From assembly GCA_902783855.1 (NCBI GenBank), contig CACZSU010000028.1, positions 1-48,113 on the forward strand: a stretch of 48,113 bases of DNA. The letters are read 5' to 3'. A program made the position numbers and the translations under genes. The notes beneath the pieces were generated by a model that worked only from the letters and a program-made list of their open reading frames with translations, did no database searches and was not told the DNA's origin. Shown piece by piece: positions 5,811-42,919 of the stretch; the stretch's first letter is position 1; each line of letters begins with the position of its first letter. The stretch is from an uncultured Ruminococcus sp. GTDB taxonomy: Bacteria > Bacillota > Clostridia > Oscillospirales > Acutalibacteraceae.

Positions 5811-6941
5811 TTATTCTTTCAGACTGGCAGCATCAAAATTAAATAATCGGGTTTTGCTCCACCATCTGGAAACAGGCGTCATCACCCAGTGTGCCAGCAC
5901 ATCAAACAGTCCCGCTGCCGCAAATGATCCTGCCAGCAGGAGAAAATAACACCCCAACGCGGACAGCACACCGCCCCTGAACATTTTCGGCACATCTATT
6001 ACAAGCATGATCATACGTATGACCGTAGTATGCAGCAGGAAAATACCGAAGGAGCTTTTGGCAACGAAATTGATCACAGACGAGCTGCCCACATCAATGC
6101 GTGTAAAGAAATCAAACAAAGCTGCCGCCTGAATTACCACCAGAGCGGTATCATATCCCAGCAGACCGCCTGTTCCGCCGAGCTTCGGCACAGCCATGGT
6201 AACAGCACAATTGATCAGGGAACAGCCGAGCGCCGCTGCCAGCTCCAGATATTTCATCCCGGCATTGCGGAAGACGATGGGGTATTTTTTGAGATAACCT
6301 CCCAGCAGATAAATGTACATAAAGTTAATCAGCGTAAAGCCGCTGCCGTTTCCATCACGTGCAATCGTAAAGACCTCAATCACCTTGCTTCCGGTCAGAT
6401 TTTTGTAGGAATCAATGATTGTCGGCCACAGACAGAACAGCACAAAGCCCACAATGATCAGCCGCCGGTAGGACTGACGGCTCATACCCCTGACCATGCG
6501 GTTCAGATACGGCGATATCACATAAAGTGTGCAGTATAAAAAGACATAATAGCTTTTCGGAAAGATATTCTGTAACAGGTACTTAACCTCCATCGGCACA
6601 CCGTTTGCAAGATGCAGTGATACATACTTGACAACACTGTATACACTGCATACAAAGAACAGATTGATGGCTTTTCCGATTTTGCGCTTATCGTTGTCAA
6701 TCATAAAATAGCCCGAAATCAGAATAAAAATATCCACCGCCGTGATGGAAAAACAAAACAGCCAGTTGGTCGCTCCCCACGCCAGAAATGACCCGGATGC
6801 CTTTGCATATTTTATGCCCCCGATAATAGCCGGATTCAGCATATGCAGACTGATCACCATCAGCGTACACAATATCCGGAGTAATTCAATATTCGATTTC
6901 CGCATTTTCTTTGACCCGATCACTTTCTCTTTCATCAACAT
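5811..6941 (-). CDS. Membrane acyltransferase (acyltransferase_3 family)
   Basis: A polytopic membrane protein beginning ...NIELLRILCTLMVISLH, the acyltransferase-3 N-terminal signature. The start is set at MLMKEK (6941) because AAAGGAGG lies 8 nt upstream. Confidence 0.8.
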   Translation of the reverse strand: MLMKEKVIGSKKMRKSNIELLRILCTLMVISLHMLNPAIIGGIKYAKASGSFLAWGATNWLFCFSITAVDIFILISGYFMIDNDKRKIGKAINLFFVCSVYSVVKYVSLHLANGVPMEVKYLLQNIFPKSYYVFLYCTLYVISPYLNRMVRGMSRQSYRRLIIVGFVLFCLWPTIIDSYKNLTGSKVIEVFTIARDGNGSGFTLINFMYIYLLGGYLKKYPIVFRNAGMKYLELAAALGCSLINCAVTMAVPKLGGTGGLLGYDTALVVIQAAALFDFFTRIDVGSSSVINFVAKSSFGIFLLHTTVIRMIMLVIDVPKMFRGGVLSALGCYFLLLAGSFAAAGLFDVLAHWVMTPVSRWWSKTRLFNFDAASLKE

Positions 6942-20245: not shown

Positions 20246-20980
20246 ATGGGAAAAGTGACAGTTATTACATCAGGAAAAGGCGGTACGGGTAAATCTACCG
20301 TTACAGCAGGTTTGGGCGCAGCCCTTGTGCGGCGCGGCAACCGGGTTTTGATTATAGATTGTGACGCCGGAATGCGTGGAATTGACCTTATGCTTGGCGT
20401 CAGCGGAGAATTGGTTTTTGATATTGCTGATATTGTCAGCGGAAACTGCCCCCCTGCAAGTGCAATATATCCCTGCAAGACAGTTCCTGAATTATTTGTC
20501 CTGCCCGCTCCGTCAGATGTCCGCAATGAGATCAGCCCATATATTATGAAGCAGCTGGCTGCGGTTCTTAAAAAATACTACGACCATATCCTGATTGACT
20601 GTCCTGCGGGCATCGGTATCGGTACAGAAGCAGCAGCAGCTCCTGCTGACCGGGCGGTTCTGGTTGCGAATACGGAACCATTGACTGTCAGGGGCTGTGA
20701 TAAGGTGCGCCGTATGCTTGCCGATCTGCGGATACAGGAGATACGGCTTGTGATCAACCGGTTTAATGAACGGAATTTCAGAAAGCTCGCTGCTTTTGAA
20801 GACCTGGATGCAGTTATTGATAAGGCAGGCGCAAGGCTGCTGGGCATTGTTCCGGAGGATTCCGCTGCAGTGGGTCGAGCACAGAAGGGTTTGCCGATAG
20901 AAGGTCGGTATAAGGCTGTGTATGCACTTGACCGGATTGCTGCCAGACTGGACGGAACAGAGGTTCCGCTTGAGCTTTAA
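20246..20980 (+). CDS. MinD/ParA-family P-loop ATPase
   Basis: It has the deviant Walker A, SGKGGTGKST, then LIIDCD, and resembles MinD overall. No minC or minE is adjacent, so it is not named minD. Confidence 0.8.
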   Translation: MGKVTVITSGKGGTGKSTVTAGLGAALVRRGNRVLIIDCDAGMRGIDLMLGVSGELVFDIADIVSGNCPPASAIYPCKTVPELFVLPAPSDVRNEISPYIMKQLAAVLKKYYDHILIDCPAGIGIGTEAAAAPADRAVLVANTEPLTVRGCDKVRRMLADLRIQEIRLVINRFNERNFRKLAAFEDLDAVIDKAGARLLGIVPEDSAAVGRAQKGLPIEGRYKAVYALDRIAARLDGTEVPLEL

Positions 20981-35163: not shown

Positions 35164-35727
35164 ATGAAACAGCAGATCAAAACAACCGAAGCCATTTTCC
35201 CTATGCCTGTGCTTCTGATATCGACCTTTAACGAGGACGGCACGGTAGATGTCATGAATGCCGCATGGGGCACCATGCTGGAGCGTGACAGAGTGGCACT
35301 CAATCTTACCGAAACACACAAGACCGTTCAGAATATAAAAGCAAGAAAGGGCTTTGTTATTCATATTGCAGATGCAAAGCACGTTGTGGAAGCGGATTAC
35401 TTTGGCGTAGTCAGCGGAAACAAAGAGCCGGACAAGTTTGCAAAGAGTGGTCTGACCTTTACCAAGTCGGAACTTGTTGACGCTCCGGTCATCAATGAAT
35501 TCCCTATAGCTATGGAATGTGAATTCATCGAGTATCAGAGCGACGCAACCGGTCTGGGCGTTATTGCGAAGGTTGTCAGAACATCTGTAGAAGATACAGT
35601 AATGAAAGACGGCAAGGTGGACATTGACTCTCTGCAGGCTATTGCCTTTGACCCATACACACACGGATATTATAAAGTCTGCGGCAGGGTCGGAGACGCT
35701 TTTAAGGATGGACTCCAATTGAAGTGA
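35164..35727 (+). CDS. Flavin reductase-like (FMN-binding split-barrel) protein
   Basis: 187 aa. PMPVLLISTFNEDGTVDVMNAAWG is typical of the flavin reductase domain family. Confidence 0.8.
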   Translation: MKQQIKTTEAIFPMPVLLISTFNEDGTVDVMNAAWGTMLERDRVALNLTETHKTVQNIKARKGFVIHIADAKHVVEADYFGVVSGNKEPDKFAKSGLTFTKSELVDAPVINEFPIAMECEFIEYQSDATGLGVIAKVVRTSVEDTVMKDGKVDIDSLQAIAFDPYTHGYYKVCGRVGDAFKDGLQLK

Positions 35728-35837
35728 TTGTTTTATCCTGATGACTATACCGATATTGAAGAAGTGATCAAGCCAGAGAGAGATTTTTTATATATGAAGG
35801 TATAAACTATTCTCTATTCACTATTCATTATTTCTGA

Positions 35838-35866
35838 GCCCCCGAACAAAGTGAGGGGGCTTTTTT
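35838..35866 (+). terminator. Intrinsic terminator after the flavin reductase gene
   Basis: GCCCCC (35838-35843) pairs with GGGGGC (35855-35860) across an 11-nt loop, followed by T6 (35861-35866). Confidence 0.8.
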
Positions 35867-35868
35867 GG

Positions 35869-35885
35869 TATAGGAATAACCTATA
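35869..35885. promoter_or_regulatory. 17-bp palindrome TATAGG-AATAA-CCTATA upstream of the cysK promoter (candidate LysR-type operator)
   Basis: Perfect inverted repeat with a T-N11-A core, centred at 35877, exactly 30 bp upstream of the first base of the -35 hexamer. A near-identical box at 43697-43713 has the same geometry. Confidence 0.6.
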
Positions 35886-35906
35886 ATTAATAAAACAAAA
35901 AAATTC

Positions 35907-35935
35907 TTGACAAAACCATCCGGGTGTGAGATAAT
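35907..35935 (+). promoter_or_regulatory. Sigma-A-type promoter of cysK
   Basis: The -35 is TTGACA (35907-35912). A 17-nt spacer leads to TG-a-GATAAT (35927-35935). Confidence 0.65.
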
Positions 35936-36071
35936 ACCATATAGCATAACCTACTAATCACATAGGTTAAATATATTATAAAGCAGGGAGTAATCCATAT
36001 GAATTTCAAACCCTCGCAAAAGCGATGTTGATGCTGTATTTTATAGCAATCAATCTGAGGAGAGAACATAC

Positions 36072-36995
36072 ATGAAAATATATAAGAAAATAACCGATCT
36101 GATCGGAAGAACACCGCTTCTGGAACTGGAAACGGTGGGTAAAAATAACGGAGCAGCCGTTTTCGCAAAGCTAGAGTTTTTTAATCCCGCAGGAAGCGTC
36201 AAGGACAGGATCGCAAAGGCTATGATTGATGACGCAGAAGCCAAGGGCATACTGAAACCCGATTCTGTGATTATCGAGCCGACCAGCGGCAATACGGGAA
36301 TAGGACTTGCGGCTGTCTGTGCAGCAAGAGGATATCAGGTCGTACTGACGATGCCTGAAACAATGAGCATTGAGCGCAGAAATCTTCTGAAAGCATATGG
36401 AGCAAAGGTCGTGCTGACCGAGGGTGTAAAGGGTATGAAGGGCGCCATTAAAAAAGCTCAAGAGCTTGCAGCCGAAAACGCACATAGCTTTATACCAAGT
36501 CAATTTACCAATAGCGCCAACCCGAAGGTGCATTATGATACGACAGGTCCCGAAATATGGGAGGATACTGACGGAAAGATTGATATCTTTGTTGCCGGCG
36601 TCGGCACAGGCGGTACCATCTCCGGTGTCGGCGAGTACCTGAAAAGCAAAAATCCCAAAGTTCAGGTGGTGGCTGTTGAGCCTGCCGGTTCGCCTGTTCT
36701 TTCAGGAGAAAAACCCGGACCGCATAAGATACAGGGTATCGGCGCAGGATTTGTGCCGGAAACTCTGAATACCGCAATTTATGACGAGATCATAAAAGTA
36801 ACGAACGAGGATGCTTTTGAAACAGGCAGGGAGCTTGCAAAAAATGAAGGGCTGCTTGTAGGCATATCATCCGGCGCAGCTGTCCGGGCAGCGTCAGTGC
36901 TTGCAAAGCGTCCGGAAAACAAAGGAAAAATAATTGTAGCAATACTGCCTGATACAGGCGAAAGATACCTGTCCACGGCAATGTTCTCAGTATAG
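36072..36995 (+). CDS. cysK: Cysteine synthase A (O-acetylserine sulfhydrylase)
   Basis: The PLP lysine motif is [11 protein letters not shown], with [10 protein letters not shown] and [10 protein letters not shown]. 307 aa. Confidence 0.9.
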
Positions 36996-37012
36996 AAAAA
37001 GAGGTTTTTGAA

Positions 37013-37156
37013 ATGAAGATCCGCAGTAATTTACAGTTTAATACTGTTTCATCCGAAAGCAATGCATTTGTTTCCGGCAATCATGCTGCGCCTGCTTGCT
37101 GCTGTATGTGTTGTACCGACACAGACGGCTTACAGCGATGTTTTATTTTACCGTAA
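37013..37156 (+). CDS. 47-codon Cys-rich leader peptide ORF (MKIRSNLQFNTVSSESNAFVSGNHAAPACCCMCCTDTDGLQRCFILP)
   Basis: It is below the ORF-track cutoff. The SD AAGAGG (36999-37004) lies 8 nt before ATG 37013. Codons 37097-37114 read TGC TGC TGT ATG TGT TGT. The ORF is embedded in alternative RNA helices that end in a terminator. Confidence 0.6.
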   Translation: MKIRSNLQFNTVSSESNAFVSGNHAAPACCCMCCTDTDGLQRCFILP

Positions 37157-37213
37157 AACAGTTTTTCTGCCATAGCCGTCTGTCTGCACCATCGCAGCAC
37201 AGGCGGCATTTTT
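37097..37213 (+). promoter_or_regulatory. Candidate ribosome-mediated (Cys-codon) transcription attenuator
   Basis: Segment 1 (37101-37111) pairs with segment 2 (37119-37129) at 10 of 11 positions. Segment 2 (37121-37130) pairs with segment 3 (37174-37183) in 10 perfect bp. Segment 3 (37175-37187) pairs with segment 4 (37194-37207). These helices are mutually exclusive. Confidence 0.6.
37175..37213 (+). terminator. Intrinsic terminator of the Cys-leader attenuator
   Basis: GCCGTCTGTCTGC pairs with GCAGCACAGGCGGC: 13 bp with one bulged C, one GU pair and a 6-nt loop. AUUUUUAUGUUU follows. It ends 8 nt before the SD of the next gene. Confidence 0.7.
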
Positions 37214-37233
37214 ATGTTTAGGAGAGAATGATT

Positions 37234-39342
37234 ATGATAGCAGCACAGGAAAGCATTACTGCAAAATTATGTTCCTTTGCCCGGGCATATCACTCAAATA
37301 TCGGGCGAAAGAAAATATTTGACGATTATCTTGCCTATGATCTGATGGGCAAGCAGGAATTTGAGGAAATAGGTCAGCTCATACAGAATGATTTTGATAC
37401 AGACAATATTACGGATAATCCGGATTTCACAGCAGAACAGATCAATCCTAAGCTTAACCGTTATATTGCACCTATTCCGCTTTCAAGAATAGCATTTGCC
37501 GAAACAAAATTGCTTGAATTTGCGAAGAAACATCCTGTATGCCAGTATATTATCTGCGGTGCGGGAATGGATACCTTTGCTTTCAGGAATGAAAAGGCAG
37601 ATATACGGATATTCGAGCTTGACCATCCAGACACCAGCAGATATAAGTGCGAAAGAATACGTGAGCTTGAATGGAACATCCCGAAAAATCTGACATTCGT
37701 ACCCATAGATTTTTCAAAGGATGATATGACACAGGTACTGCTTTCATCAGGCTATGATCCGGATATCCCGACATTCTTTGCGATACTTGGCGTTTTATAT
37801 TATCTGACTTTTCCGGTATTTGAGCAGACAATAAAAAAGATCAGCCGTATTTGCCGTGCAGAAACAGAAGTCGCATTTGACTATCCCGATGAAACAACAC
37901 TTGCAGACAGAAGCCCTGAAAGAGTACATACACTTGCAAAGATCACGGAAAGGCTCGGAGAAAAAATGCTGCACGGCTATTCCTTCCTGGAGATCAGCAC
38001 CGTGCTTGACAAATACGGCTTTGCAATTGAGGATTACAAAACGCCGCAGATGATACAACAGCATTATTTTGCGGACAGGGATGACGGTATCAAAGCATTT
38101 GAAAATATACATTTTATGCTGGCATTCAAAACAAAGGAGAAAGTGAAAATGAAGAATTATATATTTACATCAGAATCTGTTACCAAGGGACACCCCGATA
38201 AGGTCTGCGACATGATATCAGATGCCATACTGGACGCTTTTCTGAAAACAGACAGCCATTCCCGTGTTGCTGTGGAAACGGTTGTCAAGAACAATACAGT
38301 GATACTTGCCGGGGAGGTTTCCTCCACAGGAAGTGTTGATATTGAAAAGACGGTCAGGGATACCATTAACGGTATCGGGTATGACCGCCCGGAGCTTGGG
38401 TTTGATGGTCATTCGGTCAACATCATACAGCTGATTGATAAACAATCGCCTGATATTGCTCAGGGAGTGGATGATGCGCTTGAACACAGAGGTGAACAGA
38501 ATGCCGATATCGGCGCAGGCGATCAGGGAATGATGTTCGGTTATGCTGTTAACGAAACGGAGGAGCTTATGCCCATCCCGATTTCCCTTGCGCATAAGCT
38601 GTCAAGAAAGCTGACGGAGGTAAGAGAAGACGGCTCTCTCCCCTACCTCAGACCTGATGGAAAAACACAGGTTTCCGTTAAATATGAAGGCGGCAGACCT
38701 GTGGGAATAGATACGGTTCTTATCTCCACGCAGCACGACCCGGATATCACACAGGAGCAGATCAGGAATGACCTGATACAATATGTTATTCGTCCGACAC
38801 TTCCCGAAAAATGGAAAAACGATGATTACAAAATACTTGTCAATCCCACCGGACGATTTGTTATCGGAGGACCTGTGGGCGACAGCGGACTGACGGGAAG
38901 GAAAATCATTGTGGATACCTATGGCGGTGCAGCTGCACACGGCGGAGGAGCATTTTCCGGCAAGGATCCTACGAAGGTTGACAGAAGCGCCGCATATGCT
39001 GCAAGATATATTGCCAAAAACATTGTTTCAGCAGGTCTTGCGGAAAAGGCGGAAATACAGCTTGCCTATGCAATCGGTGTTGCTGCACCGGTATCAATAC
39101 TTGTCAATACCTTCGGGACAGGAAGAATATCGGATGATCTTATCAGGCAGGCAGTCGAAAACACAATCGACCTCAGACCCTCGGGGATAATAGAAAGGTT
39201 TGACCTGCAAAGACCGATTTATGCGCGGACTGCATCCTACGGACATTTTGGCAGAACAGACATTGATCTGCCTTGGGAAAGGACAGATCTCGCATCAGAG
39301 CTGAAAAAATATCTTAACCATTATTTCAAGGAGGCAGTGTGA
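37234..39342 (+). CDS. Continuous ORF fusing a class I SAM-dependent methyltransferase (LCMT/TIGR00027-like, about 300 aa) to S-adenosylmethionine synthetase
   Basis: No stop codon separates the methyltransferase part (...[14 protein letters not shown]...IFELDHPDT...) from the MetK part. The start is taken at ATG 37234, 9 nt after GGAG; an ATG at 37228 is also in frame. Confidence 0.75.
38149..39342 (+). CDS. metK: S-adenosylmethionine synthetase module, with its own SD and ATG inside the fusion ORF
   Basis: [32 protein letters not shown]..., [18 protein letters not shown] and [16 protein letters not shown] are canonical MetK motifs. AAAGGAG lies 9 nt upstream of ATG 38149. Confidence 0.9.
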
Positions 39343-39866
39343 TGAATCTGATACCAAGCTTTTCTGTCGATCACAGAGCGATTGTACCTGGCATTTTTAC
39401 AAGCCGCACAGACAGGGTCGGTGACAGTGTGATCACGACATACGATATAAGGCTTACAAGACCGAACAGAGAACCGGCAATAGATGCGGCGGCTATGCAC
39501 TCGCTGGAACATATCATAGCGACCTTTCTGCGGAACGATCCCGATTGGCAGGAGGAAATCATCTACTGGGGACCCATGGGCTGTCTGACAGGATTTTACC
39601 TGATTCTGAAAGGGAACCGTTCTCCCCGTGAGATCTTTGAGCTGATACGGAGTGCTTTCCGGGAGGTTGATCATGTTCAGAGCGTTCCTGGTACATCACC
39701 GGAAAACTGCGGACATTACCTGATGCATAACCTTGGAATGGCAAAATGGTATGCAGAAAGATTTGCAGATTATCTTGATGCGAACGCCGGAAATGATCTG
39801 ATTTATGAATATCCGAGAACAGACCGTCTTATTACGGATGACGGACAGAAGTTCTTTGATTCATAA
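39342..39866 (+). CDS. luxS: S-ribosylhomocysteine lyase
   Basis: The metal motif is HSLEHIIATFLRN, with GCLTGFYL. The ATG overlaps the metK stop (TGATG). Confidence 0.9.
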   Translation: MNLIPSFSVDHRAIVPGIFTSRTDRVGDSVITTYDIRLTRPNREPAIDAAAMHSLEHIIATFLRNDPDWQEEIIYWGPMGCLTGFYLILKGNRSPREIFELIRSAFREVDHVQSVPGTSPENCGHYLMHNLGMAKWYAERFADYLDANAGNDLIYEYPRTDRLITDDGQKFFDS

Positions 39867-39905: not shown

Positions 39906-41063
39906 ATGTCAACATATAAACACATTGAATCAGCCCTTATTCACGGGGGCATTTACGGAGATGCATATACAAAGGCAGTCAATGTACCTATCTATCAGAC
40001 ATCGACATACGAACAGAGCGGTATCGGTGAAACGCCGGAGTGGGAATATTCCCGCACAGGCAATCCCACCCGTGCGGCATTGGAAGCACTGATAGCAGAG
40101 CTTGAAGGCGGAAAGGCAGGCTTTGCCTTTGCTTCGGGTATGGCGGCAATTACCGCAGTGCTGAGCCTTTTCCATACCGGCGATAAAATCATCATTTCAA
40201 GCAATGTATATGGCGGCACCTTCCGTGTACTGGATAAGGTATTCAATCATTTTGGAATAGGCTATTCGATCGAAGACACCACCAATATCAAAGAGCTTGA
40301 AGCGAGGATCACCCCGGATGTAAAGGCAATACTGATCGAAAGCCCTGCCAACCCCCTGCTCACTGTTACCGATATCGGCGCGGTGGCGCGTCTTGCCGCC
40401 AAGCATGATATTCTTTCCATTGTGGACAATACCTTTATGACGCCGTATCTGCAAAAGCCCCTTGAACTGGGAGCAGATGTTGTCATTCATAGTGCGACAA
40501 AATATCTTGGCGGTCACAGTGACGTTGTGGCAGGGCTGGTGGTAGTGAATGACGATAAGCTTGCAAAACAGATAGCCTTTATCCAGAATTCAACCGGCGG
40601 CGTTCTCGGTCCCTTTGACAGCTTTTTGCTTATCAGAGGCATCAAAACACTGGGCGTCCGTCTTGACCGCCATGTTGAAAATGCAGAAAAGGCTGCAAAA
40701 TTTCTCAGCGGGCATAAGGCTGTCAAGAAGGTTTATTATCCGGGACTGCCTGATGCACAGGGCTATGCAATCAATCAGCGTCAGGCTAAAAACGGGGGCG
40801 TCATGATCTCGTTTGAGCTTTATGAAAACTACGATATCCATCGGTTCTTTCAGTCACTGAAACTGGTTGCCCTTGCAGAGAGCCTTGGCGGCGTTGAGAG
40901 CCTTGTTTGCCATCCGGCAAGTATGACACACGCTTCCATTCCATACGAGGTACGTCAGAAAATCGGCATCACAGACGGTCTTATCCGTCTTTCCATCGGC
41001 ATTGAAAATATAGATGATATACTTGCCGATCTTGCACAGGCTATTGCAGAAAGCGAGGGTTAA
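39906..41063 (+). CDS. Cys/Met-metabolism PLP enzyme (cystathionine beta/gamma-lyase, MetC/MccB-like)
   Basis: YSRTGNPTR, the PLP lysine motif HSATKYLGGHSD and ESLGGVESL are present. 385 aa. Confidence 0.85.
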   Translation: MSTYKHIESALIHGGIYGDAYTKAVNVPIYQTSTYEQSGIGETPEWEYSRTGNPTRAALEALIAELEGGKAGFAFASGMAAITAVLSLFHTGDKIIISSNVYGGTFRVLDKVFNHFGIGYSIEDTTNIKELEARITPDVKAILIESPANPLLTVTDIGAVARLAAKHDILSIVDNTFMTPYLQKPLELGADVVIHSATKYLGGHSDVVAGLVVVNDDKLAKQIAFIQNSTGGVLGPFDSFLLIRGIKTLGVRLDRHVENAEKAAKFLSGHKAVKKVYYPGLPDAQGYAINQRQAKNGGVMISFELYENYDIHRFFQSLKLVALAESLGGVESLVCHPASMTHASIPYEVRQKIGITDGLIRLSIGIENIDDILADLAQAIAESEG

Positions 41064-41065
41064 TC

Positions 41066-41977
41066 ATGGCACTTTATGAGGATATGCAGCAGCTGATAGG
41101 AAATACTCCGCTGGTAAGACTGAAGCATCTTGACCTTCCCGAGGGTGTAAAATTGTATGCAAAATTAGAACTGCTTAACCCATCCGGCAGTGTCAAGGAC
41201 AGAATCGGAAAATACATGATAGAGGATGCCGAACAAAAAGGCATACTCAAAAAAGGCAGCGTTATCGTAGAAGCTACTGCCGGAAATACAGGACTTGGCA
41301 TTGCCTTTGCAGCACTGAACAGAGGATATCATATTATCTTTGTTGTACCCACAAAGTTTTCTCAGGAAAAGCAGACACTGCTCCGTGCCCTCGGTGCAAG
41401 GATTATCAATACTCCCCGCGAGGGAGGTATGCTGGGTGCATGGAAAAAGGCGGAGGAAATACGCAGCACGATTCCCGGTGCGGTTACGTTGGAGCAGTTC
41501 AAAAACCCGTCCAATCCGCTGGCACATTATGAAACAACAGGAAAAGAAATATATGACGATCTTGGCGGCAATATTGATTATCTTGTGGCAGGAGCAGGAA
41601 GCGGCGGTACATATTCGGGAGTTGTAAAGTACCTTAAAGAGAAAAACGGACATATTGTGGGAGTACTTGCTGATCCTGTCGGTTCCACTATGGGCGGCGG
41701 TGAGCACGGAGAGTACAATATTGAAGGTATCGGAAATGATTTCATCGCTGATACCATGGATATGTCCCTTGTGGACAGGGTGATAAAAATGACTGACAGT
41801 GAGGCTTTTGAGGGTGCAAGGGAGCTTGCAGGGAAAGAAGGCATCTTTGCCGGTTCCTCATCCGGTGCTGCACTTGCGGCTGCCAAAAAGCTGATTGCAG
41901 ACGGCGCAAGAGGAAATATCGTGGTTATTTTTCCTGACAGGGGCGACCGCTACTTTACAAAAAATCTATATGAATAA
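41066..41977 (+). CDS. Cysteine synthase-family PLP enzyme (CysM/MccA-like paralog of cysK)
   Basis: NPSGSVKDRIG, TAGNTGLGIA and GAGSGGTYSG are present. It sits directly after the lyase gene, as in mccA/mccB-type reverse transsulfuration pairs. Confidence 0.85.
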   Translation: MALYEDMQQLIGNTPLVRLKHLDLPEGVKLYAKLELLNPSGSVKDRIGKYMIEDAEQKGILKKGSVIVEATAGNTGLGIAFAALNRGYHIIFVVPTKFSQEKQTLLRALGARIINTPREGGMLGAWKKAEEIRSTIPGAVTLEQFKNPSNPLAHYETTGKEIYDDLGGNIDYLVAGAGSGGTYSGVVKYLKEKNGHIVGVLADPVGSTMGGGEHGEYNIEGIGNDFIADTMDMSLVDRVIKMTDSEAFEGARELAGKEGIFAGSSSGAALAAAKKLIADGARGNIVVIFPDRGDRYFTKNLYE

Positions 41978-41986
41978 AGGTGTATT

Positions 41987-42919
41987 ATGACATTACAACA
42001 GATACATTACGCAATAACTATCTCGGAACAGGGTTCTTTCAATAAGGCGAGCGAGGTGCTGTATATTTCACAGCCCTCGCTCACTGAGGCTGTCAGAGAG
42101 TTGGAAAAGGAACTGGGAATCATTATATTCCACCGCAGCGGCAAGGGTGTTACCCTGACAAGTGACGGCACAGAGTTTATATCCTATGCACGGGATCTGT
42201 ACCGCCAGTATGAAACCATATTAGACCACTACAATGAAAGCGGCACGCTGAAAAAGAAATTCGCCGTTTCGACACAGCATTATTCCTTTGCCGTCAAAAG
42301 CTTTGTGGAACTGGTAAAACAGCTGAATACCGATGAATACGAATTTGCTATAAGAGAAGTCCGCACCCAGAAGGTAATAGAAGATGTCAGCACTCTCAAA
42401 AGTGAAGTTGGCATATTGTATCTGAGCGATTTCAATTCACCGCTTCTTACAAAGCTGATGCGTACAAATAAGCTGGAATTCCATGAGCTTGTCACCTGTG
42501 ATGCATATGTTTACATATGGAAGGGACATCCCTTAGCCAATCATAAAAGCATACGCTTTGAGGAGCTTATAGGATTTCCGAGCCTGTCCTTCGAGCAGGG
42601 CGGAAACGGTTCGATGTATTTTGACGAGGAAATACTCAGCAATAATCACTATCCCCGCACCATCAAGGCTACAGACCGGGCAACAATGCTGAATCTGATG
42701 GTAGGGCTGAACGGCTATACTTTGTGTTCGGGAATCATCTGCGAGGAACTGAACGGCGGAGAATATGTCGCTGTTCCCTACGAGCCTGACACCGATCATC
42801 CCGGCAGCAGAATGAAGATCGGCTATATCACAAAAAAGAACATTCACCTCAGCAGCGTAGGCAAAATGTACATTGCAGAGCTGAAAAAATATTTAGGAGT
42901 ACAAGATGAAGATAATTGA
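41987..42919 (+). CDS. LysR-family transcriptional regulator
   Basis: The N-terminal HTH is FNKASEVLYISQPSLTEAVRELEKELG, followed by a LysR substrate-binding domain of typical length (310 aa). Confidence 0.85.
   Translation: MTLQQIHYAITISEQGSFNKASEVLYISQPSLTEAVRELEKELGIIIFHRSGKGVTLTSDGTEFISYARDLYRQYETILDHYNESGTLKKKFAVSTQHYSFAVKSFVELVKQLNTDEYEFAIREVRTQKVIEDVSTLKSEVGILYLSDFNSPLLTKLMRTNKLEFHELVTCDAYVYIWKGHPLANHKSIRFEELIGFPSLSFEQGGNGSMYFDEEILSNNHYPRTIKATDRATMLNLMVGLNGYTLCSGIICEELNGGEYVAVPYEPDTDHPGSRMKIGYITKKNIHLSSVGKMYIAELKKYLGVQDEDN

Follow-up and report, generated by a model that had tools for sequence, protein, structure and literature searches.

Ribosome-mediated transcription attenuation is classically represented by the E. 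coli trp and Salmonella his leaders, together with the leu, thr, pheA and ilv leaders. The mechanism of such trp/his-type attenuators is summarised in bioRxiv 10.1101/834739. RNA-based control of amino acid genes in Clostridia has classically been ascribed to T-boxes and riboswitches (PMC1262725), and the ubiG-mccB-mccA operon of Clostridium acetobutylicum carries a Cys-specific T-box upstream (PMC2566862). Candidate cysteine leaders in Actinobacteria have Cys-codon runs near the stop codon and lie upstream of cys operons or cbs; they are without recognisable terminators or alternative hairpins, and their mechanism was left open by the authors (PMC1262725). The polycysteine leaderless short ORFs of mycobacteria have been tested experimentally in Mycobacterium smegmatis (Canestrari et al., Mol Microbiol 2020; bioRxiv 10.1101/834739), so that the statement in an earlier sequence-only reading of the DNA studied here, according to which cysteine leaders are known only as computational predictions from Actinobacteria, is out of date. 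In that system, a ribosome stalled on the Cys codons rearranges an RNA duplex to which these codons contribute and which masks the downstream SD, giving a translational output with no terminator (bioRxiv 10.1101/834739). Finally, uORFC-8-2, located upstream of cysS in Rhodobacterales, is a computationally predicted ribosome-mediated attenuator (PMC8632094). As far as the literature that we searched shows, this is the one previous prediction of a terminator-based leader sensing cysteine, and our search found no paper on a cysteine leader attenuator in Clostridia.

The window analysed here is a stretch of 48,113 nucleotides from an uncultured Ruminococcus sp. Between a cysK-like gene and a set of genes for methionine and cysteine metabolism it contains a leader that we read, from its sequence and from folding models, as a ribosome-mediated transcription attenuator, which would sense the charging of tRNA-Cys and gate read-through from cysK into a methionine-to-cysteine operon. 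We put the probability of this reading at about 0.8. The features of the locus are as follows.

35907..35935, + strand: sigma-70-type promoter (TTGACA, 17 nt, TG-extended GATAAT; 11/12 matches)
36072..36995, + strand: cysK-like O-acetylserine sulfhydrylase (PALP; Pfam PF00291, E = 2e-82)
36999..37004, + strand: leader SD AAGAGG, 8 nt from the ATG
37013..37156, + strand: leader ORF, 47 codons, translation MKIRSNLQFNTVSSESNAFVSGNHAAPACCCMCCTDTDGLQRCFILP*, identified by translation and by homologous short ORFs
37097..37114, + strand: regulatory codons UGC UGC UGU AUG UGU UGU (CCCMCC)
37101..37113, + strand: segment 1, 5' arm of helix 1:2, made of Cys codons
37117..37130, + strand: segment 2, core ACAGACGG at 37121-37128, partner of segment 1 or segment 3
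37140..37159, + strand: linker hairpin GUUUUA...UAAAAC with the leader stop UAA (37154-37156)
37174..37187, + strand: segment 3, core CCGUCUG, antiterminator partner and 5' terminator arm
37194..37207, + strand: segment 4, core CAGGCGG, 3' terminator arm
37208..37219, + strand: U-rich tract AUUUUUAUGUUU after the terminator stem
37228..39342, + strand: LCM-type SAM-dependent methyltransferase fused in frame to MetK, 704 aa (Pfam)
39339-39866, + strand: luxS (Pfam PF02664)
39906-41063, + strand: mccB, cystathionine gamma-lyase-like (Pfam PF01053)
41066-41977, + strand: mccA, cystathionine beta-synthase-like (Pfam PF00291)

Translation of the window confirmed the ORF, its SD and its run of five Cys codons and one Met codon as they had been described from the sequence, and placed the cysK stop codon 3 nt upstream of the leader SD. 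A six-frame scan for at least four Cys in seven codons returned 25 matches in the 48-kb window, mostly in the off-frames of genes, and the Cys run alone is therefore weak evidence. Another such match, CCCFCTDTDA at ~20638 on the minus strand, was taken as a chance occurrence, being an off-frame of a long coding region without segments 2-4. Methionine was considered as a second sensed amino acid and rejected, the middle codon of the run varying among relatives (AUG, CUG, AGA, UCC, CCC, GUU).

The three helices that had been proposed for a four-segment attenuator were all recovered. Helix 1:2 takes a slightly longer form in ViennaRNA than had been given before, namely 37101-37105/37125-37129 plus 37107-37113/37117-37123, at -14.3 kcal/mol. 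In helix 2:3, 37121-37130 is 100% complementary to 37174-37183 over 10 nt, with a duplex energy of -18.2 kcal/mol, and in helix 3:4, 37175-37187 pairs with 37194-37207 in 13 bp including one bulge and one G-U pair, at -23.3 kcal/mol, directly before the U-rich tract. Segment 2 (ACAGRCGG) nearly duplicates segment 4, and segment 3 is complementary to both. By copying the 3' arm of the terminator, segment 2 has two alternative partners, the Cys codons (1:2) and the 5' terminator arm (2:3). The antiterminator shares this 5' arm with the terminator and hence excludes it, while the 1:2 hairpin is likely, judging from the folding model, to act as an anti-antiterminator and pause hairpin. The spacer folds more stably than its shuffles (z = -3.2, 1/200). 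A simple terminator scan of the window did not report the 3:4 hairpin, presumably because of its bulge; from the sequence, an attenuated transcript would be expected to end near 37213.

Folding was then combined with a simulated ribosome, the footprint of which was masked while segment 4 was treated as not yet transcribed. With the A site on any of the first four Cys codons, helix 2:3 formed with a mean pair probability of 0.89-0.98, which dropped to 0.58 on the fifth Cys codon and to 0.015 and 0.0 on the two codons past the run. A ribosome on the last Cys codon would partly cover segment 2, so the scheme works well for no more than the first three or four Cys codons. In the comparison of terminator and antiterminator states that had been suggested, helix 2:3 forms with the ribosome on Cys1 to Cys4, but the terminator dominates in every simulated state when the full leader is folded at equilibrium, and equilibrium folding of the full leader therefore provides no evidence either way. 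Moreover, in the ribosome-free RNA lacking segment 4, helix 2:3 outcompetes 1:2 (0.97 vs 0.10), so that, under replete conditions, termination would have to rely on kinetics and on the ribosome as a steric obstacle. As to the proposal that a ribosome at the leader stop codon blocks the antiterminator, the stop does lie between segments 2 and 3, but blocking is a steric argument beyond the thermodynamic model, and with the stop codon 25 nt downstream of segment 2 in the window it relies either on sterics or on 1:2 re-forming.

On the attenuator reading, a ribosome supplied with plentiful Cys-tRNA would cross the Cys run and either cover segment 2 or sit at the stop codon in the linker between segments 2 and 3, and 1:2 could re-form behind it. 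With segment 2 covered or engaged in 1:2, segment 3 would be free to pair with segment 4, transcription would terminate near 37213 and expression would be limited to cysK and the leader. When Cys-tRNA is scarce, the ribosome would stall as one of the first Cys codons enters its A site, masking segment 1 with its edge 9-12 nt short of the segment 2 core. Helix 2:3 would then form once segment 3 emerges, the terminator would be precluded and RNA polymerase would read into the methionine-to-cysteine genes. Because the terminator is the more stable structure at equilibrium, the decision must be kinetic.

[quoted passage not shown] As in those leaders, the regulatory codons lie in segment 1, under helix 1:2 and about 20-25 nt upstream of segment 2, the stop codon precedes segment 3 and the regulated genes produce the sensed amino acid. 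It departs from the classical attenuators in sensing cysteine in a Clostridia host, in belonging to a salvage pathway from methionine instead of de novo synthesis, in lying, in the window, inside a transcription unit after cysK and not at its 5' end, and in having no sequence similarity to any Rfam leader family. The mycobacterial short ORFs likewise place consecutive Cys codons upstream of cysteine-metabolism genes; unlike those leaderless ORFs, however, the present leader has an SD and, in the window, follows cysK on the same transcript, and its competing structure is an intrinsic terminator, not a duplex that hides an SD. With the Actinobacterial candidates (PMC1262725) it shares the short ORF and its run of Cys codons. 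uORFC-8-2 also has in-frame Cys codons within the first stem and a terminal U run, but it contains only two tandem Cys codons, precedes a Cys-tRNA synthetase gene in alpha-proteobacteria, is described as two stems and has no evident sequence relation to the leader (PMC8632094). [quoted passage not shown] The T-box, however, binds uncharged tRNA directly without translation, whereas the sensor proposed here is a translating ribosome. Rfam at gathering score gave no match in the whole window, including T-box and S-box/SAM riboswitches, and with the threshold relaxed to E <= 10 no Rfam family, T-box included, matched over the leader. The one match in 35700-37300, to SAM/SAH, was at chance level (13.7 bits vs 40, E = 5.7) and lies inside the cysK coding region. 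Rfam searches of two related leaders, L161 and L163, gave no match.

We sampled 13 orthologous spacers through the downstream methyltransferase protein (87-60% identity). Eight homologues were picked solely by protein identity over this range; to these we added L075, two peptide homologues and Clostridium sp. W14A (GCA_001695555.1). A contig search with the full 704-aa fusion protein returned nearly exclusively housekeeping MetK loci, L075 alone being useful. All sampled homologues have the layout cysK, spacer, methyltransferase, and in 13 of 13 spacers there is a short ORF of 26-51 codons with SD, ATG and a CCxCC-type run. The Cys run and its reading frame, the conservation of which had been named as a check, are thus kept in every sampled relative that possesses the spacer, and the element recurs down to 52-60% identity of the neighbouring protein. 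It is this conservation in related loci that lifts the leader beyond chance, a single sequence not being decisive. In addition, a metagenome scan with a pattern of segments 2, 3 and 4 and no Cys requirement returned 67 stretches, 27 of which have a Cys run directly upstream. A methyltransferase gene lies downstream in 24 of these 27 loci, mostly followed by mccB and mccA, and the other three contigs are too short; all metagenome leaders with enough flank are located upstream of a methyltransferase-(metK)-(luxS)-mccB-mccA operon. The 27 sequences add little independent support for the pairing, since the search pattern fixed their core pairs. Forty of the 67 stretches, lacking both a Cys run and related genes nearby, were set aside as unrelated; none of the other matches, counted as 41, adjoins these genes.

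Across the collection, an SD and an ATG in the Cys frame are present in 31 of 31 unique full-length leaders, and likewise in L163, with the SD-like motif 5-12 nt upstream of the start codon in all 31. The N-terminal peptide varies in both sequence and length, yet SD, start and frame are preserved, in these 31 as well as in Clostridium sp. W14A. A CCxCC(C) run with exchange of TGT and TGC occurs in 32 of 32 sequences, every homologue having 3-6 Cys within 8 codons, and among the 12 codons preceding segment 2, Cys accounts for 153 of 384 (TGT 97, TGC 56). The first Cys codon lies 21-36 nt upstream of segment 2, at exactly 24 nt in 22 of 31 leaders, and in all 31 the stop codon is found 1-28 nt past segment 2, with 16-44 nt left before segment 3. 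The linker hairpin of the window was seen by eye, uncounted, to be retained in closer relatives; in the distant leaders L093, L094, L113, L146 and L163 a different hairpin, again judged by eye and uncounted, has the stop codon in its loop.

These data bear on the possibility that the element is a terminator/antiterminator switch operated by a protein, a small molecule or a tRNA and not by a ribosome, the ORF being a by-product of UGY triplets pairing to ACAGRCGG. One arm of 1:2 consists of the Cys codons, so pairing alone favours UGY-like triplets. T and C in the third position both pair with G, and the exchange of TGT and TGC is therefore ambiguous as evidence for selection on the amino acid. 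Conservation of the core at the nucleotide level is very high. Such a switch does not, however, predict a correctly spaced SD and ATG in 31 of 31 leaders, a Cys frame that stays open for at least 28 codons while the other two frames are often closed, the invariable placement of the stop between segments 2 and 3, or further Cys codons that lie beyond the helix (37097-37099, for example). Nor does it predict that the first position of the paired Cys codons is U, which gives a U:G at the third outer pair of 1:2, and not the better-pairing C, in 27 of 27 distinct rows. Ahead of the Cys run neither sequence nor length is constant, so that a conserved aptamer would have no place there, and neither a T-box nor a riboswitch model matches. 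We therefore regard a switch of this kind as very unlikely.

The pairing itself is also kept, segment 2 being able to form either of its two helices in every sequence. The 1:2 hairpin is predicted in all 31 foldable sequences, at -11 to -24 kcal/mol, and RNAalifold on the 13 protein-sampled spacers yields a consensus of 1:2 plus 3:4, with at least four U after the terminator stem in 13 of 13. The antiterminator core is paired in all 13 of these spacers (91% of cells, vs 29-45% in slid controls). The core of segment 2 is invariant except for one R position, and where this differs the partner base in segment 3 differs with it: among 29 distinct sequences, the variable pair with segment 2 is GC in 11, GU in 10 and AU in 8, the corresponding pair with segment 4 is UG in 14, CG in 11 and UA in 4, and there are no mismatches even though the search pattern permitted A opposite C. 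The flanking pair of the terminator takes the forms GU, UA, GC, CG and AU. Compensatory change, which had been proposed as a check, was found at the variable position, which co-changes on three strands, but the covariation statistics are modest, with 24 of 500 shuffles matching the observed percentage paired and 81 of 500 matching the covariation score in the protein-sampled set. We attribute this to the near invariance of both helices and to the relatedness of the sequences.

If the ORF does sense Cys-tRNA, its output could instead be translational coupling, Rho-dependent polarity or mRNA stability. There is precedent in the mycobacterial Cys short ORFs, which act on translation (bioRxiv 10.1101/834739), and in the Actinobacterial Cys leaders without terminators (PMC1262725). 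At this locus, however, a stem of -23.3 kcal/mol and its U tract are conserved, the antiterminator and the terminator arm overlap exactly, and the SD of the first regulated gene (AGGAGAG at 37220-37226) lies outside the terminator hairpin and is unsequestered, the Cys tract pairing with segment 2 and not with this SD. A different output thus appears very unlikely, and transcription attenuation is the reading that we retain.

The product of the ORF might alternatively matter in itself, as a Cys-rich micropeptide that binds metal or sulfur or is the precursor of a modified peptide, the hairpin then serving only to end a cysK-peptide transcript. Some public assemblies do annotate the peptide as a gene (P0001, P0002), and closer relatives share a partial N-terminus, xIRSNxQFNTVSxE. 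Against this, conservation across the family is confined to the Cys run and to T-G-G or T-D-G, which is translated segment 2 (ACAGRCGG), the length ranges over 26-51 residues with a C-terminal tail of 0-9 residues, and none of five leader peptides tested matched a Pfam or NCBIfam family. Among the called neighbours there is no modification enzyme or transporter, the conserved partners being genes of Cys/Met metabolism, and a plain terminator leaves both the copying of segment 4 by segment 2 and the co-change on three strands unexplained. We consider a functional micropeptide highly improbable. The idea that ORF and helices came together by chance in an otherwise ordinary spacer, for which the frequency of Cys runs in the six frames of the window (the 25 matches above) might speak, is refuted by the comparative data, the arrangement occurring in every sampled orthologous spacer of the clade, even where the neighbouring protein is only 52-60% identical, and the three-segment pattern being expected 0.00 times in shuffles of the window. 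Taken together, the conserved SD, frame, Cys run and stop position and the alternative pairing support the four-segment, Cys-sensing attenuator that had been proposed.

The promoter at 35907..35935 is conserved in aligned relatives, and we infer that it drives the leader, since there is no good promoter between cysK and the leader. In most related loci, too, the gene preceding the leader is cysK; where it is not, the leader is equipped with a strong TTGACA-17-TATAAT-like promoter of its own, with the ORF roughly 30-70 nt downstream of it, which is the normal position for an attenuator. Downstream, the gene order of the window recurs in the related loci. The methyltransferase-metK gene (Pfam PF04072 plus PF00438, PF02772 and PF02773), which had been named as the target of the leader, does lie directly downstream, but the fusion is particular to the window and results from a 4-nt difference at the gene junction. 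In the relatives for which gene tables were read, methyltransferase and metK are separate or metK is absent; one database homologue, P0027, has both the methyltransferase and the MetK domains in one protein. As read from their sequences, the regulated genes convert methionine to cysteine, by a route that would involve the SAM-consuming methyltransferase, MetK, LuxS, an MccA-type cystathionine beta-synthase and an MccB-type cystathionine gamma-lyase. The leader would then control the switch-on of methionine-to-cysteine conversion through SAM and LuxS.

In the literature that we searched, a cysteine-tuned, trp-style attenuator would be new for Clostridia. Because the equivalent operon of C. acetobutylicum carries a Cys T-box, the leader would represent a ribosome-based sensor doing the same job in the same place, and it looks like the replacement of one tRNA-charging sensor by an unrelated one. 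It is also a ready model for a new Rfam family and a compact candidate for a cysteine-responsive expression switch, encoded by a small ORF of the kind that annotation pipelines overlook or label as a hypothetical protein.

The 5' UTR of cysK contains a different short ORF of exactly 10 codons with the invariant ending CGA-UGU-UGA (Arg-Cys-stop), and the cysK promoter has a conserved palindromic operator, a probable binding site for a protein regulator. An anti-SD model for the 10-codon ORF was inconsistent, as mean SD accessibility increased (0.38 to 0.52) but only 5 of 14 sequences showed a clear rise. It is possible, and we suggest it tentatively, that cysteine sensing is layered, comprising the operator promoter, the 10-codon Arg-Cys ORF and the poly-Cys attenuator. 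If both ORFs read tRNA-Cys charging, or if the first encodes an arrest peptide responding to free cysteine, sulfide assimilation by cysK would come on first and methionine would be sacrificed only upon a real fall in Cys-tRNA charging. Such a design would combine, within a single transcription unit, two ribosome-based Cys sensors that differ in mechanism, in a phylum in which this role has been attributed to T-boxes. The leader is carried by contigs labelled as gut and other metagenomes, by genomes of uncultured Clostridia and Oscillospiraceae and, among cultured strains, by Clostridium sp. W14A.

The sequence-only reading had placed a candidate cysteine-sensing attenuator of the trp/his type at 37013-37213, between cysK and the methyltransferase-metK gene. 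Translation, ViennaRNA and a repeat finder located the ORF, its SD and all three helices where they had been described, and comparison of related loci argues for the proposed function. We consider it likely from these comparisons (probability roughly 0.8) that the leader is a cysteine-specific attenuator of the classical kind in a Clostridia lineage, and that it works as described. Its elements in the window are:

36999-37004, + strand, leader SD AAGAGG, 8 nt 5' of the ATG and 3 nt past the cysK stop codon
37013-37156, + strand, leader ORF, translation MKIRSNLQFNTVSSESNAFVSGNHAAPACCCMCCTDTDGLQRCFILP followed by the stop
37097-37114, + strand, Cys run (six codons, five for Cys and one for Met)
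37101-37113 with 37117-37129, Cys-codon hairpin (segments 1:2), -14.3 kcal/mol (ViennaRNA)
37121-37130 with 37174-37183, antiterminator duplex (2:3) of ten Watson-Crick pairs, -18.2 kcal/mol (ViennaRNA)
37175-37187 with 37194-37207, intrinsic terminator hairpin (3:4), -23.3 kcal/mol (ViennaRNA), followed by AUUUUUAUGUUU

The arms of the antiterminator are 100% complementary and were found independently by the repeat finder, and the entire spacer folds more stably than its shuffles (z = -3.2). Cys runs alone are common, as a six-frame scan of the window gave 25 matches with at least four Cys in seven codons, most of them in off-frames of genes, and a single sequence is therefore insufficient to decide. 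An off-frame translation at about 20600-20640 on the minus strand reads ...SRSCCCFCTDTDA..., similar to CCCMCCTDTDG of the leader; it lies within a long coding region, lacks segments 2, 3 and 4 and was taken as a chance resemblance.

The operon constitutes a SAM-recycling and reverse-transsulfuration route from methionine to cysteine, the counterpart of which in Clostridium acetobutylicum is ubiG-mccB-mccA (PMC2566862). Pfam assigns the genes around the leader as follows:

36072-36995, cysK-type PLP enzyme
37228-39342, + strand, LCM-family SAM-dependent methyltransferase fused to MetK
39339-39866, LuxS
39906-41063, Cys/Met-metabolism PLP enzyme, MccB-like
41066-41977, second PALP enzyme, MccA-like
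41987-42919, LysR-type regulator

Using the methyltransferase domain alone as query, we obtained 757 homologues at E <= 1e-10 and took eight of them solely by identity (87, 81, 75, 73, 66, 63, 62 and 60%) and extent of contig. All eight loci contain cysK, a spacer of approximately 190-320 nt, the methyltransferase gene and then mccB and mccA; some also have metK and luxS. Together with the window, Ruminococcaceae bacterium UBA1213 (L075), two peptide-homologue loci and Clostridium sp. W14A, they form a set of 13 spacers. Alignment of orthologous spacers had been suggested as a check on the sequence-only reading, and a short ORF with SD, ATG and Cys run occurs in 13/13. The N-terminal part of the ORF is variable in sequence and length (26-51 codons); examples of its end, each preceding the stop, are ...FSCCMCCCNDTDGF, ...NACCRCCCTFTGGFLL, ...SRCLCCCCCSYTGGGLCLRF, ...MLCCLCCQTDTGGLFRVSKKI, ...SACCLCCFKGTGGRFSCT and ...ELCCRCACITNTGGSFPRT.

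Metagenomes were scanned with a pattern for segments 2, 3 and 4 and the U run that made no Cys requirement (ACAGRCGG, N32-62, CCGYCTG, N10-40, CAGRCGGNNTTTT). The pattern, expected 0.00 times from shuffles of the window, matched 67 metagenome stretches, 27 of which carry 3-6 Cys codons within the 12 codons 5' of segment 2. A methyltransferase gene lies downstream in 24 of these 27, the contigs of the other three ending too early to judge, and mccB and mccA come next in most of the 24 that have sufficient sequence. None of the 41 remaining pattern matches, found in the other 40 stretches, adjoins genes of the methyltransferase operon. In five loci that lack cysK directly upstream, the leader has a promoter of its own, of the TTGACA-17-TATTAT/TATAAT type, and so occupies the 5' end of the transcript, where attenuators normally lie. 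Some ten to twelve matches without a Cys run or related neighbour genes share a near-identical 110-nt sequence (L105, L111, L112, L116, L121, L122, L126, L139, L148 and L149); they come from metagenome contigs, several labelled human gut, one frame reads ...GRKFSADAAGNFGKTHGF..., and they represent a conserved sequence unrelated to the leader.

Across 31 unique full-length leaders and that of Clostridium sp. W14A, SD and ATG are always in the Cys frame, which runs without a stop for 28 codons or more 5' of segment 2, while the other two frames are often closed. Each leader contains 3-6 Cys in its run. The distance from the first Cys codon to segment 2 is 21-36 nt (exactly 24 nt in 22/31), and the stop codon always falls 1-28 nt past segment 2, with 16-44 nt remaining to segment 3. 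Cys accounts for 153 of the 384 codons at the 12 positions before segment 2 (TGT 97, TGC 56), and the mid-run codon varies between AUG, CUG, AGA, UCC, CCC and GUU. The T-G-G or T-D-G conserved after the run is the translation of segment 2 (ACAGRCGG), itself nearly a copy of segment 4 (CAGRCGG), both being complementary to segment 3 (CCGYCTG).

All three pairings are strongly conserved, with modest strict covariation. In an anchored alignment of 31 sequences (29 distinct rows), 92% of terminator cells are paired, compared with 35-49% after the partner strand is shifted by 1-3 columns, and the flanking terminator pair occurs as GU 7, UA 7, GC 6, CG 4 and AU 2. The antiterminator is paired in 84% of cells versus 28-49% in slid controls; its sole variable pair is GC 11, GU 10 and AU 8 among the 29 distinct rows, and the same segment 3 position forms UG 14, CG 11 and UA 4 with segment 4, both with 0 mismatches. 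The absence of A opposite C is informative because the search pattern permitted it; core pairs that are invariant among the metagenome sequences are uninformative because the pattern fixed them. Among the 13 protein-sampled spacers, RNAalifold independently predicted the 1:2 and 3:4 hairpins, and the eight core antiterminator pairs form in 13/13, or 12/13 at one end (91% of cells paired versus 29-45% in slid controls, a value reached by 24/500 shuffles). All 31 foldable sequences were predicted to form the 1:2 hairpin, with energies between -11 and -24 kcal/mol; the remaining entry of the 32 was too truncated. Local alignment showed that the Cys codons in this hairpin hold U where C would pair better in 27/27 distinct rows.

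Mechanistically, a ribosome stalled on the early Cys codons would mask segment 1 and leave segment 2 free. In a simulation with a footprint spanning -15 to +12 nt relative to the first base of the A site and the transcript ending before segment 4, A-site positions Cys1 to Cys4 gave a mean 2:3 pair probability of 0.89-0.98, Cys5 gave 0.58, and the two codons after it gave 0.015 and 0.0. The modelled geometry is that of the trp leader, in which the stalled ribosome masks segment 1 and ends short of segment 2. In the folding model, the terminator is favoured at equilibrium in every simulated state of the full leader, and 2:3 still outcompetes 1:2 without a ribosome and before segment 4, so that cysteine-replete termination must rest on kinetics and the ribosome. 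Under cysteine sufficiency, steric considerations suggest that the ribosome would cover segment 2 or occupy the 43-nt stretch between the 2:3 arms. Several leaders have a U-rich stretch after the 1:2 hairpin (at least four U in the next 8 nt in 13/32), which would fit a pause site synchronising ribosome with polymerase. A response to cysteine and a dependence on translation are predicted for the leader, in a model that includes kinetic assumptions.

The leader agrees with classical trp/his-type attenuators in its short ORF with SD, its cluster of Cys codons, its intrinsic terminator, its antiterminator and its predicted 1:2 helix over the Cys codons. Its stop codon, 25 nt past segment 2 in the window, may allow a ribosome that does not stall to prevent the antiterminator, sterically or through 1:2 re-forming. 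It shares the Cys tract and the logic with mycobacterial poly-Cys short ORFs, but those are leaderless and act on translation, two defining features that the leader lacks. The authors of the mycobacterial study stated in 2020 that cysteine uORF-mediated attenuation had not previously been described (bioRxiv 10.1101/834739); a terminator-type Cys leader was later predicted for cysS in Rhodobacterales (PMC8632094), and the actinobacterial candidate Cys leaders are without terminators (PMC1262725). In full-text literature searches, no earlier account of leader-peptide attenuation by Cys in Firmicutes came up; in C. acetobutylicum a Cys T-box precedes the equivalent operon (PMC2566862). No Rfam family reached gathering score anywhere in the window or E <= 10 on the leader, and the leader peptides matched no Pfam or NCBIfam family. 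The carriers that have a name belong to the Oscillospiraceae or to unclassified Clostridia. In the more distant operon of Anaerosporobacter sp. (L161), which an Rrf2-family regulator gene adjoins, the cysK-methyltransferase gap is 27 nt and the leader is absent; it follows that a single clade has added the attenuator to an operon that can do without it.

Further elements lie upstream of cysK:

35907-35935, + strand, cysK promoter, its -10 box just 5' of the inverted repeat
35946-35970, + strand, inverted repeat ATAACCTA-N9-TAGGTTAA, just past the -10 box
35999-36031, + strand, second short ORF in the cysK 5' UTR, SD at 35986-35990

Similar palindromes follow the promoter, upstream of the leader or cysK, in L104, L132 (CCTAT...ATAGG), L136 and the leaderless Anaerosporobacter locus with its adjacent Rrf2-family gene. 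The palindrome probably serves as the operator of a regulatory protein, either a CymR-like Rrf2 protein or the LysR-type regulator at the operon end, whose control would add to that by the attenuator. The second short ORF has exactly 10 sense codons in 14 loci (the window and L081, L085, L086, L087, L089, L090, L092, L093, L094, L096, L099, L129 and L152) and is absent from L075, L088, Clostridium sp. W14A (L163) and L161. Its codons 2-8 vary freely, whereas its last nine nucleotides are invariably CGATGTTGA (Arg-Cys-stop, with identical synonymous codons); possible roles are sensing of Cys at the level of translation and action as an arrest peptide. Some folds pair a pyrimidine-rich stretch within it with the cysK SD. 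Masking by a ribosome on its Cys codon clearly raised cysK SD accessibility in only 5/14 loci, and support for a simple anti-SD model is inconsistent.

An enzyme for the step from SAH to S-ribosylhomocysteine is not evident among the Pfam assignments of the window operon genes; in the related locus L093, a PNP_UDP_1 family gene (MtnN/Pfs-like nucleosidase, 6047-6763) between luxS and mccB would provide it. The methyltransferase and MetK form a single 704-aa ORF in the window, with the junction near 38125-38145. The two genes are separate in L081-L084 (4-nt overlap) and in L087 (approximately 60 nt apart), and metK is missing from the operon in several relatives. Relative to L081, a 4-nt insertion at the junction brings the two frames into register. 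Either the fusion is genuine or the assembly contains an error at this point; both domains also occur together in one database homologue, P0027.
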